64,000 bases of DNA from positions 5,580,001-5,644,000 of the forward strand of contig CM120646.1 of the NCBI GenBank assembly GCA_051362555.1. Direction: 5' to 3'. The stretch is from Lingula anatina. Its lineage: Eukaryota > Animalia > Brachiopoda. Positions within the stretch are counted from its first letter, which is position 1, and each line of letters opens with the position of its first letter. This document shows positions 1,236-52,100 of this stretch, piece after piece. The position numbers and the translations under genes were made by a program. Under the pieces are notes generated by a model. The model was not told the origin of the DNA and ran no database searches. It saw only the letters and a program-made list of their open reading frames with translations.

Positions 1236-1313
1236 GTCATGATGTAAAATTGGCAGAAGATTGTGGCTGTGAAACTGACCAGTCACAATTTGATGTCAAC
1301 ATTACAACATGGT
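1236..1313 (+). ncRNA. H1 hairpin, B-unit variant (representative)
   Basis: Same 5' arm as H1. The flanks differ but still pair (GGUCAUG/CAUGGUC and UGUAA/UUACA), and the loop is UGAAACUGAC. Confidence 0.62.
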
Positions 1314-1392
1314 CAAGACAGCGTGAAAATACAATTGAAGACGAATCGAATGATGTTAAGAATTTGACACACGTTGGGAAAGATTATTTTAG

Positions 1393-1470
1393 GCCATGAT
1401 GTAGAATTGGCAGAAGATTGTGGCTGTTAAACTGATCAGTTGCAATTTCATGTCAATACTACACCAAAGT
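1393..1470 (+). ncRNA. H1 hairpin, terminal C-unit variant (representative)
   Basis: Same 5' arm. The 3' arm CAGUUGCAAUUUCAUGUCAAU still pairs via G-U and A-U, and UGUAG pairs with CUACA (G-C where other variants have G-U). The most basal pairs are weakened (CCAAAG). Confidence 0.55.
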
Positions 1471-25700: not shown

Positions 25701-27316
25701 CATGGTACAGACGGCGTGAAAACAGTAGTGAAGAAATGTACGAAGAAGATTCAACCCACTGTATATTTTTGGCAATAAAGGAGTGGCTGGGGAATATAAC
25801 ACCAGTGCTTCTTTTTGTCAAACCTGTTCAGTGGGAAAAACCTCAAATAATATGAAGAAATTGATGCAGATGGAAAACAAATTTGGTCATGATGTAAAAT
25901 TGGCAGAAGTTTGTGGCTGTGAAACTGAACAGTCACAATTTTATGTCAACATTACAACATGGTCAAAACAGCATGAAAATACAAGTGAAGACGAATCGAA
26001 TGATGTTAAGAATTTGACACACATTGGGAAAGATTATTTTAGGCCATGATGTAGAATTGGCAGAAGATTGTGGCTGTAAAACTGATCAGTCACAATTTTA
26101 TGTCAACATTACACCATGGTACAGACAGCGTGAAAACACAAGTGAAGAAATATTCAAAGATTCATCCCACTGTATATTTTTGGCAATAAAGGAGTGGCTG
26201 GGGAATATAACACCAGTGCTTCTTTTTGTCAAACCTGTTCAGTGGGAAAAACCTCAAATAATGTGAAGAAATAGATGCAGATGGAAAACAAATTTGGTCA
26301 TGATGTAAAATTGGCAGAAGATTGTGGCTGTGAAACTGACCAGTCACAATTTGATGTCAACATTACAACATGGTCAAGACAGCGTGAAAATACAAGTGAA
26401 GACGAATCGAATGATGTTAAGAATTTGACACACTTTGGGAAAGATTATTTTAGGCCATGATGTAGAATTGGCAGAAGATTGTGGCTGTAAAACTGATCAG
26501 TTGCAATTTCATGTCAATACTACACCAAAGTCCAGTCAACAGCTTTGTTTGGTTTGTTGTAGGATTAAACATTGTAAGATGATTAGTTTACAGGTAGACA
26601 AGATAAAATCTTGATTGCAATCATAGCTGAGAAGTCACCTGTGGAAAGTCTACTACTTGGGCTGTGACAACTGTACACATGACACATGAATAGAACAAGG
26701 GTGACACTAAATACAACTGGTAAGAATGGACAGACAGAGATAAGACAGCTTGACAGAAGTAAACTTGAATATCTTGACATATTTGACATGGGGGATGAGG
26801 TATAAAAGCAACTACACAGTAGAAACCAGACAGAAAGCTCTTGGATAAGAGCATAAGAACAGTCATGATGTAAGATGTGCATAAATTTTGGACCATGATG
26901 TAGAATTGGCAGAAGATTGTGGCTGTGAATGTGACCAGTCACAATTTTATGTCAACATTACACCATGGTACAGACAGCGTGAAAACACAAGTGAAGAAAT
27001 ATTCAAAGATTCAACCCACTGTATATTTTTGGCAATAAAGGAGTGGCTGGGGAATATAACACCAGTGCTTTTTTTTTGTCAAACCTGTTCAGTGGGAAAA
27101 ACCTCAAATAATGTGAAGAAATAGATGCAGATGGGATAACAAGGCAGCAAAGCTGTCAAATGTACAGACAAAAACCAGAAAATAAAAACGCAGGAAATAG
27201 GATACTGTCAATTCTGATGAACTAATGTATTATGCTTACTGTAACTGCATAGCCAACATCAAATTCTTATTCTGCATAACATTGGATTAGGATGAAAGTA
27301 AAATGTGTATCAAGCA

Positions 27317-27541
27317 TTAGACTAAGTTCCCATACCTAAATCAATCTAACAGGATCAATGCAACTCCAAGGGGTTTCTCACTAAATTGCTTTCAGTTTGA
27401 GAGTCTTAGGATTCTGGCATGCCAGTTTCAGAAGGCGTGACAGACAACTAAGCCACTTACATTGATTGCAATTTAGCGAGAATTCCCATGGAGATAGATC
27501 GATCCACAGTTAGCGTGATAGGGTCTGGAAATAGTCCCTAA
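27317..27541. mobile_element. Decayed MITE-like foldback nested in the HINE
   Basis: CTCCAAGGGGTTTCTCACTAAATTGC (27364-27389) matches the reverse complement of 27468-27493 at 22/26. Similarity extends outward with indels to ~70-bp arms. A central palindrome CTGGCATGCCAG lies at 27415-27426. Confidence 0.55.
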
Positions 27542-27627
27542 GGTGTCAGGCTGATAAGAGTTAAACTTTGGAAATGCCAGAATGAGGTACAGTGAAAATC
27601 ACACACAAAAAAATTGCTTAAACTCAT

Positions 27628-27682
27628 TAAAAAAAAAAATATATATATATATATATGTATATATTATTAATTTTTTTTTTTT
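27628..27682. repeat. poly(A)-(TA)n-poly(T) low-complexity tract
   Basis: An A-run, about nine AT dinucleotides and a T-run are directly visible. Confidence 0.9.
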
Positions 27683-29043
27683 GGGCTGTATGTCAATCCT
27701 AAGAATCATTCTTGTAACTTAACAAAATACAGAAAATGTTACAAAGTAAGAGTACAGGGCTCCTGGCAGATGGGAGTGATAAGTCACAACTTGAAAATGC
27801 CAGTATAGCACTCTATAAACCTGCATTGCCTCCAAAACAGAAAACAATCACACTGGTTTTCAAACACAAGCTGCGCACTTCTGTCTTATGAAACTTTTCA
27901 CTAAGTTTCAGTATCGTAAGTAACATGGTTTTCCCTTAATCGCTATCCTGGCAGCAGTGTCCAAAATAGGGTTTTCTTCAACTTTCATGCAATAAAACAT
28001 AATACTTAACAGCATAATGACCATCAAATTTTTTATAAAAAAATAAAAGTATCATGAAAATTCAGAAAATGTGATTTGGGAAGGTCTTCAAGGCCATGGA
28101 AGTTCAGAGTCACACTTTCAAAATGCCAAAATGTAAACAAGAGATAACTGTACTGAAATGATTTTCTTTCCATTTTCAACACCTTTTTTAAAACAAAATG
28201 ATCAATAAACTGTCATTTTTAAATGTTCAACTAGGAAAATATAGGAAAAATAGCAATAGAACAATTTTCAATGTCCAATTTGCTCCATTTGCAGATGCTG
28301 AACATAGTGAATGATTAAATCTGACAAACTGCAATGATGAGTTCCTTTCCATTTATGATACTTTATTACACAATGCACAATATTATAACAGGTTTACCGT
28401 CATTTTTATATAATCAACAAACAATATTGTTAAGAAGCAGAAAATGTCAAAACAACACTTTTACATATCTTATTAGTTCCATAATGAGACTGTTAACATG
28501 CCTAAGAATTAAATCTGAAGAAATAACAATTATATACAAAAATACAGAAAATGCACAGCACTTCTGGTGGATGGGAGTATAAAATCACATCTTGAAGATG
28601 CTTGTGTTTGAAAAATAATTTTAAAAAATTTTTAAATAAAACGTAAAAAATTCCAATAAAGCTGCTATTCAAACTTTTAATCTAGCTGTATTAACTTGAT
28701 ATTAATAACCCCACCAAGTTTGAGAAAAATAAAGCACTGTTATTCATCTATAGCATGTTGGCATAACACAATCTTTTTGTTGTAAATTTATTTGCAATGT
28801 TAAATACCATTTATCTGCACAATTATCACCAAATCCTAATTTTGTGACACAGTTAAGAGAGCTAAACCTATGGGACTTTACAGGGAAATCTCAAGGAGTG
28901 TTTTATGTAATCTCATTTAATGGCCAATTGAAAATTAATGAGTAGGCAAGTGACTTTATAGACCTTAATTTAATTAGTGATCACCCAAGGGACAATTTTA
29001 TAGACTAGCTGCCATCCATACAGTACCATCATATAGCACAAAG

Positions 29044-29706
29044 GTGTTGCATACATGCTGAAAAAAGTGAAAAAAACAGCATAACTTCCCTAAAAATGAC
29101 CCGATGATGCTGATTTTCAAACTTGACCTGCGTATTATGAATATTCATTAGTTCTGCAAGTTTCAAACCAAAAGGTAAAATGGTTTTCCACTTATCATGT
29201 TATCAGTGTTGCATATATGCTGAAAAAAGTGAAAAACAGCATAACTTCCCTAAAAATGACCCAATCATACTGATTTTCAAACTTGACCTGCGTATTATGA
29301 ATATTCATCAGTTCTGTAAGTTTGAAACCAAAAGGTAAAATGGTTTTCCACTTATCGTGTTATCGGTGCTGCATATATGCTGAAAAAAGTGAAAAAACAG
29401 CATAACTACCCTAAAAATGACCCATTCATGCTGATTTTCGAACTTGACCTGCGTAATATGAATATTCATTAGTTCTGCAAGTTTCAAGCCAAAAGGTAAA
29501 ATGATTTTTCACTTATCATGTTATCAGTGTTGCATATATGGTGAAAAAAGTGAAAAACAGCATAACTTCCCTAAAAATGACCCGATCATGCTGATTTTCG
29601 AACTTGACCTGCGTATTATGAATATTCATCAGTTTTGTAAGTTTCAAGGGAAAAGGTAAAATGGTTTTCCACTTATCGTGTTATCGGTGCTGCATATATG
29701 CTGAAA
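29044..29706. repeat. HINE internal tandem repeat block 1, four ~161-bp monomers
   Basis: G(C/G)TGAAA...CAGCATAACTTCCCTAAAAATGACCC...AACTTGACCTGCGTATTATGAATATTC recurs from 29057, 29219, 29379 and 29540, ending at ~29700. Confidence 0.95.
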
Positions 29707-30098
29707 CAAGACAGCACTGTTCTGCAATGGGTTTACTTCCATTTTTAAAACACTTTTTTAACATAAAACAAAATAAACAGTTTTCTACCATTTGTATATG
29801 ATCAACTAAGAAAATTGATGAGATGGGAAAAATATCAATAGAACAGTGTTAAATGTCCAATTTCCTCCATTCTGAGATAATGAATATAGTAGATGATTGA
29901 ATCTGCCAAACTGCAATAATATTTATTTCCATTTTTGACACTTTATAACATAATGCACAATAACAAGTTTACCATCATTTTTACATAATCAACTAACAAT
30001 GTTATTAAGATGCAGGAAATGTCAAACAAACACTTTTACGTATCTTATTAGTTCAATAATGAGACTGTTAATATGCCTAACAATTGAATCTGAGGAAA

Positions 30099-31044
30099 TG
30101 TGAAAAAACAGCATAACTTCTAAAAGAATGGCCCAATTATGCTGATTTTGGAACTCAACTTGCGTTTTAGTTAGTTTGACTACTCCTGTGAGTATAATGA
30201 CAATTGGCCTATCTGTTTTTCTTATATTGTGTTATAAGCGTTGCATATATGTTGAAAGAAGTGAAAAAACAGCATAACATCCCTAAAAATGGCCCGATCA
30301 TGCTGATTTTCAAACTTGACCTGCGTAATTTGAATATTCATCAGTTTTATAAGTTTCAAGCCAAAAGGTAAAATGATTTTCCATTTATGGTGTTATCGGT
30401 GCTGCATATATGCTGAAAAAAGAGAAAAAATAGCCTAAATTCACTAAAAATGATCCAATCACGCTGATTTTCGAACTTGACCTGCGTATTATGAATATTC
30501 ATCAGTTCTGTAAGTTTCAAGTCAAAAGGTAAAATGGTTTTCCACTTATCGTGTTATCGGTGCTGCATATATGCTGAAAAAAGTGAAAAAACAGCATAAA
30601 TTCCCTAAAAGTGACCCGATCATGCTGATTTTCGAACTTGACCTGCGTATTATGAATATTCATCAGTTCTGTAAGTTTCAAGTCAAAAGGTAAAATGGTT
30701 TTCCACTTATCGTGTTATCGGTGCTGCATACATGCTGAAAAAAGTGAAAAAACAGCATAAATTCCCTAAAAGTAACCCGATTATGCTGATTTTCGAACTT
30801 GACCTGCGTATTATGAATATTCATCAGTTCTGTAAGTTTCAAGTCAAAAGGTAAAATGGTTTTCCACTTATCGTGTTATCGGTGCTGCATATATGCTGAA
30901 AAAAGTGAAAAAACAGCATAAATTCCCTAAAAGCGACCCGATCATGCTGATTTTCGAACTTGACCTGCGTATTATGAATATTCATCAGTTCTGCAAGTTT
31001 CAAGTCAAAAGGTAAAATGGTTTTCCACTTATCGTGTTATCGGT
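30099..31044. repeat. HINE internal tandem repeat block 2, about six 161-bp monomers (first degenerate, last truncated)
   Basis: Monomer starts at 30251, 30412, 30573, 30734 and 30895, with a period of 161. Confidence 0.95.
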
Positions 31045-31050
31045 AAAAGT

Positions 31051-31099
31051 GCACGGCGACGGCAACGGCGACGACGGCGACGACAGACGCAGATGATGG
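31051..31099. repeat. Cryptic (GAC/GGC)n microsatellite next to the HINE terminal hairpin
   Basis: GCACGGCGACGGCAACGGCGACGACGGCGACGACAGACGCAGATGATGG. This position is typical of HINE/DINE-1-like elements. Confidence 0.85.
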
Positions 31100-31133
31100 C
31101 AATATGTACAGACACATCTGTGTCTGTACATAA

Positions 31134-49100: not shown

Positions 49101-52100
49101 TAGAATTGGCAGAAGATTGTGGCTGTGAATGTGATCAGTCGCAATTTTAAGTCAACATTACAACATGGTACAGACGGCGTTAAAAACAGAAGTGAAGAAA
49201 TGTACGAAGAAGATTTAACCCACTGTATATTTTTGGCAATAAAGGAGTGGCTGGGGAATATAACACCAGTGCTTCTTTTTGTCAAACCTGTTCAGTGGGA
49301 AAAACCTCAAATAATATGAAGAAATTGATGCAGATGGGATAAAAATTGGCCATGATTTAGAATTGGCAGAAGATTGTGGCTGTGAATGTGATCAGTCGCA
49401 ATTTTAAGTCAACATTACAACATGGTACAGACGGCGTGAAAACAGAAGTGAAGAAATGTACGAAGAAGATTTAACCCCACTGTATATTTTTGGCAATAAA
49501 GGAGTGGCTGGGGAATATAACACCAGTGCTTCTTTTTGTCAAACCTGTTCAGTGGGAAAAACCTCAAATAATATGAAGAAATTGATGCAGATGGAAAATA
49601 AATTTGGTCATGATGTAAAATTGGCAGAAGATTGTGGCTGTGAATGTGATCAGTCGCAATTTTAAGTCAACATTACAACATGGTACAGACAGCGTGAAAA
49701 CAGAAGTGAAGAAATGTACGAAGAAGATTTAACCCACTGTATATTTTTGGCAATAAAGGAGTGGCTGGGGAATATAACACCAGTGCTTCTTTTTGTCAAA
49801 CCTGTTCAGTGGGTAAAACCTCAAATAATGTGAAGAAATAGATGCAGATGGGATTAAAATTGGCCATGATGTAGAATTGGCAGAAGATTGTGGCTGTGAA
49901 ACTGACCATTCACAATTTTATGTCAACATTACAACATGGTCAAGACAGCATGAAAATACAAGTGAAGACGAATCGAATGATGTTAAGAATTTGACACACA
50001 TTGGGAAAGATTATTTTAGGCCATGATGTAGAATTGGCAGAAGATTGTGGCTGTAAAACTGATCAGTCACAATTTTATGTCAACATTACACCATGGTACA
50101 GACAGCGTGAAAACACAAGTGAAGAAATATTCGAAGATTCAACCCACTGTATATTTTTGGCAATAAAGGAGTGGCTGGGGAATATAACACCAGTGCTTCT
50201 TTTTGTCAAACCTGTTCAGTGGGAAAAACCTCAAATAATGTGAAGAAATAGATGCAGATGGAAAACAAATTTGGTCATGATGTAAAATTGGCAGAAGATT
50301 GTGGCTGTGAAACTGACCAGTAACAATTTGATGTCAACATTACAACATGGTCAAGACAGCGTGAAAATACAAGTGAAGACGAATCGAATGATGTTAAGAA
50401 TTTGACACACATTGGGAAAGATTATTTTAGGCCATGATGTAGAATTGGCAGAAGATTGTGGCTGTAAAACTGATCAGTCGCAATTGTCAACATTACACCA
50501 TGTCAACATTACACCATGGTACAGACAGCGTGAAAACACAAGTGAAGAAATATTCAAAGATTCAACCCACTGTATATTTTTGGCAATAAAGGAGTGGCTG
50601 GGGAATATAACACCAGTGCTTCTTTTTGTCAAACCTGTTCAGTGGGAAAAACCTCAAATAATGTGAAGAAATAGATGCAGATGGAAAACAAATTTGGTCA
50701 TGATGTAAAATTGGCAGAAGATTGTGGCTGTGAAACTGACCAGTCACAATTTGATGTCAACATTACAACATGGTCAAGACAGCGTGAAAATACAAGTGAA
50801 GACGAATCGAATGATGTTAAGAATTTGACACACGTTGGGAAAGATTATTTTAGGCCATGATGTAGAATTGGCAGAAGATTGTGGCTGTAAAACTGATCAG
50901 TTGCAATTTCATGTCAATACTACACCAAAGTCCAGTCAACAGCTTTGTTTGGTTTGTTGTAGGATTAAACATTGTAAGATGATTAGTTTACAGGTAGACA
51001 AGATAAAATCTTGATTGCAATCATAGCTGAGAAGTCACCTGTGGAAAGTCTACTACTTGGGCTGTGACAACTGTACACATGACACATGAATAGAACAAGG
51101 GTGACACTAAATACAACTGGTAAGAATGGACAGACAGAGATAAGACAGCTTGACAGAAGTAAACTTGAATATCTTGACATATTTGACATGGGGGATGAGG
51201 TATAAAAGCAACTACACAGTAGAAACCAGACAGAAAGCTCTTGGATAAGAGCATAAGAACAGTCATGATGTAAGGTGTGCATAAATTTTGGGCCAGACGG
51301 CGTGAAAACAGAAGTGAAGAAATGTACGAAGAAGATTTAACCCACTGTATATTTTTGGCAATAAAGGAGTGGCTGGGGAATATAACACCAGTGCTTCTTT
51401 TTGTCAAACCTGTTCAGTGGGTAAAACCTCAAATAATGTGAAGAAATAGATGCAGATGGGATTAAAATTGGCCATGATGTAGAATTGGCAGAAGATTGTG
51501 GCTGTGAAACTGACCAGTCACAATTTTATGTCAACATTACACCATGGTACAGACAGCGTGAAAACACAAGTGAAGAAATATTCGAAGATTCAACCCACTG
51601 TATATTTTTGGCAATAAAGGAGTGGCTGGGGAATATAACACCAGTGCTTCTTTTTGTCAAACCTGTTCAGTGGGAAAAACCTCAAATAATGTGAAGAAAT
51701 AGATGCAGATGGGATAAAAATTGGCCATGATGTAGAATTGGCAGAAGATTGTGGCTGTGAATGTGATCAGTCGCAATTTTAAGTCAACATTACAACATGG
51801 TACAGACGGCGTTAAAAACAGTAGTGAAGAAATGTACGAAGAAGATTCAACCCACTGTATATTTTTGGCAATAAAGGAGTGGCTGAGGAATATAACACCA
51901 GTGCTTCTTTTTGTCAAAACTGTTCAGTGGGAAAAACCTCAAATAATATGAAGAAATTGATGCAGATGGAAAATAAATTTGGTCATGATGTAAAATTGGC
52001 AGAAGATTGTGGCTGTGAATGTGATCAGTCGCAATTTTAAGTCAACATTACAACATGGTATAGACGGCGTGAAAACAGAAGTGAAGAAATGTACGAAGAA

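Follow-up and report, generated by a model that had tools for sequence, protein, structure and literature searches.

The window analysed here, a 64,000-nucleotide stretch of the Lingula anatina genome, contains a tandem hairpin array (positions 1 to 64,000, + strand) that extends past both window edges and is very probably a multi-copy miRNA locus. Apart from an insertion of approximately 4 kb, the window consists of array throughout (37% GC). It carries 229 H1 hairpins and 140 H2 hairpins (369 in total), every one on the + strand and all grouped in 37 higher-order units with a median length of 1608 bp. The commonest unit order is TATA-(H1-H2)n-H1-H1c-spacer, where H1c is the final hairpin of the unit (for example 1393 to 1470, with its 5' arm at 1406 to 1427, predicted star at 1438 to 1459 and CNNC motif at 1476 to 1479). 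All 37 units are headed by the motif TATAAAAG (1740 to 1747 in one copy; 37 copies on the + strand and none on the - strand), a candidate TATA box and/or poly(A) signal whose distance to the first hairpin is constant in 35 of the 37. Based on its sequence, the predicted guide is likely a miR-96/182-like 22-nt RNA from the conserved 5' arm.

The H1 hairpin of the B type is found at 1236 to 1313 (+) and includes a 13-nt lower stem (1236 to 1248), a predicted pre-miRNA (1249 to 1302, predicted cut sites) and a 3' lower stem (1303 to 1313). Its near-invariant 22-nt 5' arm (1249 to 1270) is the predicted mature strand and its variable 3' arm (1281 to 1302; 22 haplotypes in 228 copies) the predicted star strand. 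The 5' arms, loops and 3' arms quoted in a preliminary description of this DNA are all present in the window: two of the 5' arms start at 1249 and 1406, within the span that it covered, and A-type arms start nearby at 481, 995 and 1844. A search for the 5' arm with up to three mismatches returned 229 matches on the + strand, where none are expected by chance, and none on the - strand of the 64-kb window. Because an independent downstream anchor identified 228 sites, each adjoining a 5'-arm match, the invariance is not a product of the search pattern, and ascertainment bias was ruled out as the source of the constant arm. The H1 statistics below are based on these 228 copies, as an H1/H2 chimera fused by deletion (61544) was left out.

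The two arms of H1 differ markedly in variability. The 5' arm is identical in 212 of the 228 copies and has five variant alleles, none at a frequency of 5% or more; the preliminary statement that this arm is the same in A, B and C units is thus correct for the great majority of copies and not for all of them. The opposite 22 nt have 20 alleles, seven of them at 5% or more (binomial p = 0.004 for all alleles and p = 0.016 for common alleles, which represent few events). No column of the 5' arm is polymorphic (0/22), compared to 6/23 on the opposite side (p = 0.022) and 21/67 among all other columns (p = 0.001). At most 23 consecutive H1 columns lack common variants (permutation P = 0.016), and the invariant block is 22 nt, flanked by variable positions at -2 and +23. 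The asymmetry is not removed by correction for copy phylogeny: among 66 haplotypes, parsimony assigns 7 steps to the 5' arm and 34 to the 3' arm (8 and 45 when the arms are left out of tree building), although gene conversion inflates such counts and the numbers of alleles are more reliable. The H1 arm asymmetry is therefore real. Rare alleles are commoner in the final 5 kb of the window, and three H1 copies (50444, 53842 and approximately 57900) have a 12-16-nt internal duplication within the 3' arm.

The variable 3' arm was also described as still pairing with its partner. This is true of the hairpin as a whole, as 16-20 of 22 arm positions are paired in 227 of 228 H1 copies, and less so of individual changes: of the six common duplex alleles, two retain the pair, one adds a pair and three break one. 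The pair-breaking alleles lie on either side of position 8, where a G-A mismatch is fixed; only 2/228 copies have lost pairing on both of its sides. When the common alleles over the entire H1 stem are counted, pairing is retained in 5 of 10 cases (expected fraction 0.27). In a folding simulation of 11 haplotypes, all performed better than the mean of random substitution, but only one of the 11 did so at the 5% level on the + strand and the - strand behaved alike.

Wobble changes had been put forward as tolerable only in RNA and hence as an argument against a DNA cruciform. H1 copies do have more G-U than A-C appositions (5.5 and 1.7 per copy, respectively). The two wobble-type alleles, though, belong to one dinucleotide (CA in 113 copies, CG in 75 and TG in 35), and both fit CpG deamination: CpG observed/expected is 0.28 in the array and two flanking CpGs show like variation. 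Since H2 has G at the matching place, CG is probably the ancestral H1 dinucleotide, in which case one of the two changes would run from wobble to Watson-Crick. G-T appositions are moreover tolerated in DNA stems, and DNA energies also favour the + strand. With both main changes compatible with CpG deamination and the simulated folds alike on the two strands, wobble is a weak argument, and these alleles were rejected as proof of RNA-level selection on account of the CpG confound. With the two CpG-type alleles removed, the arm asymmetry remains for all alleles (5 vs 18, p = 0.011) and is marginal for common alleles (0 vs 5, p = 0.06).

The + strand folds better in all 58 distinct H1 variants (mean -32.2 vs -20.7 kcal/mol) and in all 27 H2 variants (mean -35.1 vs -20.6 kcal/mol), so the - strand of H1 is weaker by approximately 11 kcal/mol and the two strands are not equally stable. 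In control windows the strand difference is -1.3 (spacer) and +0.9 (insertion). Shuffle z-scores in the eight copies tested range from -4.1 to -5.7 on the + strand and from -0.9 to -3.6 on the - strand. These results support the preliminary view of a + strand RNA hairpin with a mature-versus-star pattern rather than a DNA cruciform, with mature and star being predicted assignments. It is very improbable that the inverted repeats act as DNA, whether as cruciforms or single-strand hairpins (serving, for example, as amplification or protein sites). The - strand does still beat shuffled sequences somewhat (H1 z -1.4 to -3.6) and a protein might bind the 5' arm, but the arms are imperfect, with 5.5 G-T appositions per copy, folds computed with DNA energies reach only -13 and -9 kcal/mol, and a cruciform needs both strands and leaves the CNNC motif and the 22-nt block unexplained.

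Several features of the hairpins are those expected of miRNA precursors. In miRNA annotation, a duplex is expected to have at least 16 paired positions and a loop of at least 8 nt. The stem here is ~35 bp and at least 16 duplex positions are paired in 227/228 H1 and 140/140 H2 copies, with a lower stem of 13 nt, an upper stem of 21-22 nt and, in H1, a loop of 10 nt. The H2 hairpin is a paralogue of H1 (1105 to 1185, +, in one copy; 5' arm at 1118 to 1139, CNNC motif at 1191 to 1194). In H1 as in H2, the stem stops 13 nt upstream of the conserved block: positions -13, -14 and -15 from the start of the block are paired in 226, 84 and 86 of 228 H1 copies and in 139, 17 and 1 of 140 H2 copies. Cut sites were predicted using the 13-nt rule, with the 3' cut set 2 nt beyond the opposite base. 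The H1 CNNC motif (1319 to 1322, +) lies at +17 from the predicted 3' cut; its two Cs are fixed in 227 and 228 of 228 copies, while its Ns vary in 60 and 39. CNNC is found at +17 in 224/228 H1 and 135/140 H2 copies (background 2.8% per position). The -13 junction and the CNNC motif count as evidence from two independent hairpin types and not from 369 events. UGU is found at the end of the 5' arm in most H1 copies and a lone mismatch at -6 in H2; the basal UG at -14/-13 is absent from both hairpins, GHG is absent from H1 and the apical UGU is absent from H2.

H1 and H2 are old paralogues. They have the same stem geometry and differ by double-sided pair changes at four lower-stem and three upper-stem pairs (other gap placements are possible), with 10 of 11 lower-stem positions paired in each. 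Under the predicted 5' end, nt 2-7 are TTGGCA in 226/228 H1 and 139/140 H2 copies; nt 2-8 are TTGGCAG in 224/228 H1 copies and TTGGCAA in 139/140 H2 copies. Were the true 5' end one nucleotide further on, H1 would have another seed and would no longer match miR-96/182. Greater conservation of the mature arm than of the star and loop is seen in H1, but H2 is near-invariant in both arms, the loop and the linker, so that no arm asymmetry is found among its 140 copies (5 vs 9 alleles, none common). As H2 and the spacer are both nearly invariant, long constant stretches in this array arise by homogenisation alone.

This last point bears on whether the array could be satellite DNA derived from once-functional or chance hairpins, in which the constant 5' arm would be due to few mutations, CpG hot spots opposite and patchy conversion instead of selection. 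The higher-order repeat grammar, the equal constancy of H2 and the spacer, the CpG-type alleles in a CpG-depleted array and the lack of spacer reads in three of four RNA runs (see below) are what such a satellite would be expected to show. We nevertheless consider this origin improbable, because the asymmetry persists when the CpG alleles are removed and all others are counted, two diverged hairpins have the -13 junction, the +17 CNNC motif and the seed in common, the RNA in one run is of one orientation, and all 369 hairpins and 37 TATA motifs are on one strand.

The units are separated by a nearly invariant spacer of approximately 350 bp (36 copies; 1471 to 1830, +, in one), which may supply the 3' end of the preceding unit and the promoter of the following one. 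It contains no additional miRNA-like hairpins, as the best sliding fold in the spacer is not below -20 kcal/mol. The motif CAGGTAG, identical to the Zelda/TAGteam early-zygotic motif of insects, occurs once in each spacer (36 copies; 1530 to 1536 and equivalent sites). As the entire spacer is nearly invariant, conservation of CAGGTAG or of the TATA motif was dropped as evidence of selection. The motif of the H1 5' lower stem recurs once more, with no partner arm (1799 to 1812 and equivalents); this extra copy precedes the first hairpin of each unit by approximately 45 nt and is probably the leftover of an older duplication. One damaged unit (51197 to 51290) has lost its first H1.

Four of the nine long-RNA runs listed for the species were mapped to positions 26540 to 28900, with 6-30% of each run read. 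In run X1, from an apparently stranded poly(A) library, reads of a single orientation cover the spacer copy at 26540 to 26855 (+), just downstream of a predicted Drosha cut at 26521. Depth in successive bins is 14.8, 27, 23.2 and 6.3, with none in the opposite orientation; the last value is from the bin containing the TATA motif at 26801, and depth in the next bin is 0. First mates are on the - strand, which by the usual library convention (uncalibrated for this run) indicates + strand RNA. The signal amounts to ~40 reads (an estimate from depth) in this one run. Depth on H1 and H2 is at most 2, although the hairpins have 4-6 times more copies than the spacer; given this difference, contaminating DNA or unprocessed transcript would be expected to give more reads on the hairpins. 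No spacer reads were found in the other three runs (in X4 and X9 the hairpins are also without reads, and X7 has approximately one on H1). The X1 reads could come from another locus. They fit a polyadenylated 3' remnant left after hairpin excision, with its end close to the TATA motif at 26801. Among the known variants of the poly(A) signal is TATAAA. Since the X1 poly(A) reads stop at about TATAAAAG (26801 to 26855), this motif may serve both as a TATA box and as a poly(A) signal for the unit before it.

A repeated short protein-coding gene or a source of siRNAs or piRNAs was also considered. Across the spacer, the - strand repeatedly shows stop-to-stop frames of 105-122 codons, and the uncalibrated orientation of X1 leaves room for such a transcript. 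However, none of the four frames compared with Pfam (out of 83 recurring frames) has a match at E<=0.1, no frame exceeds 140 codons, and short 35-bp stems with a fixed 22-nt arm suit miRNAs rather than long-hairpin siRNA or piRNA sources. We therefore regard a coding, siRNA or piRNA role as quite unlikely.

The only interruption of the array is an interspersed-repeat insertion of ~4 kb (27138 to 31131) that splits one unit within a T/A run and is outside the hairpin system. Its interior contains tandem repeats of 160 bp, the 10-mer ATGTACAGAC lies close to each end and a palindrome of 28 nt is terminal, and we take the insertion to resemble a Helentron-associated (HINE/DINE-1-like) element. 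RNA reads from other loci match pieces of it in number and break off at 27138. An imperfect inverted repeat (27352 to 27505; 72 nt, 72% complementary, 10-nt loop) is located inside it.

The organization of the array is most similar to that of the zebrafish miR-430 locus, which has 313 TATA promoters in ~577 kb and hairpin triplets (10.1101/2021.08.09.455629). Both loci have head-to-tail units in which a spacer with a TATA motif accompanies hairpin blocks of variable number (10.1101/2021.08.09.455629; PMC10417697), as well as a few hairpin subtypes with one seed. The length per promoter is ~1.8 kb for miR-430 and a median of 1.6 kb here, whereas the spacer is 650 bp in miR-430 and ~350 bp in Lingula. 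A TATA unit with several hairpins, one per 1-3 kb, is thus found in this array, the promoters being predicted ones. The sequences are unrelated: the Lingula seed is UUGGCA, on the predicted 5' arm. The miR-430 seed is AAGUGC, on the 3' arm. Rfam has no match to the window at gathering score, and the 14 weak matches at E<=10 in 1220 to 2090 (E 0.98-9.5), none of them meaningful, include none to miR-430, -96, -182, -183 or -263. The array is like miR-430 in layout and, judged by sequence, is not a member of that family.

The seed, by contrast, is identical to the miR-96/182 one, and miR-182 has A at nt 8 (PMC3273822). Nucleotides 2-7 are UUGGCA in both Lingula hairpins, and nt 2-8 of H2 are the same as those of miR-182. 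H1 differs in having G at nt 8, and the known miR-96/182/183 cluster has three genes, not hundreds (PMC3273822, PMC4551935). The common seed may reflect either descent or convergence; according to MirGeneDB, seeds do converge (PMC6943042). Unrelated multi-copy clusters have been described in other invertebrates: mir-3851/mir-3836 of Tribolium, expressed just after genome activation (PMC4691753), and an embryonic cluster on Capitella scaffold 488 (PMC8915122). Like the Lingula array, these non-homologous clusters are multi-copy and have been likened to miR-430. They have tens of copies (40 genes in the Tribolium cluster) compared to at least 369 in Lingula, the Tribolium seeds differ, and the available passages mention no promoter-per-unit layout.

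In a literature search of titles and abstracts for invertebrate miR-430-like arrays and miR-96/182 expansions, nothing describing the Lingula array was found, and the accessible parts of PMC11701709 and PMC4551935 mention no such expansion. The H1 and H2 arm sequences (in DNA and RNA letters) are absent from the literature searched and may be listed in miRNA databases. A metagenome scan with a 20-nt arm returned five loci, none with the partner arm, and these were taken as chance matches.

The proposed model for the array is as follows. Each TATA-led unit would be transcribed by Pol II as a precursor with one to about ten or more hairpins. Microprocessor (Drosha) and Dicer would then cut each hairpin, H1 and H2 together yielding two different 5' guides that have a 6-nt seed in common, the 5' arm presumably being the strand loaded, and the excised transcript would leave behind the polyadenylated 3' remnants seen as spacer reads. 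Selection would keep the guide constant while the star, loop and flanks drift, their variants being spread by unequal exchange and conversion. The copy number might serve a brief, very-high-output burst, and by analogy with miR-430 and the Tribolium and Capitella clusters there is about an even chance that this burst removes maternal mRNAs carrying UGCCAA sites when the zygotic genome is activated.

Only this last step is contested by a role in the germline, testis or another tissue, to which we assign a substantial but less than even probability. Tandem miRNA clusters are also found in Drosophila testis (PMC8915122) and miR-96/182/183 act in sensory organs (PMC4551935); on the other side, the promoter-per-unit layout and unit size are like those of miR-430, and the Tribolium and Capitella clusters are early-embryonic. 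The model in its fullest form is an independent invention of a miR-430-type locus, with hundreds of hairpins, dozens to hundreds of TATA promoters, an ancient miR-96/182 seed that would clear maternal mRNA at genome activation, and in each unit a TATA motif that would also provide the preceding unit with its poly(A) signal. We offer this complete form tentatively, as its parts are somewhat unlikely to hold all together. In zebrafish, the extreme promoter density of miR-430 has been proposed to nucleate the embryo's first transcription body.

Loci like the Lingula array resemble satellite DNA and are missed by Rfam. As the exact guide sequences and target sites are predicted, the model is directly testable, and should the timing not be embryonic, the array would still be among the larger miRNA arrays. 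If the model is correct, it would name a maternal-clearance miRNA for a lineage in which none was found in the literature searched, and the existence of another locus that matches miR-430 in layout and unit size, with no relation in sequence, would point to convergent evolution of this architecture and to a tie between architecture and output.
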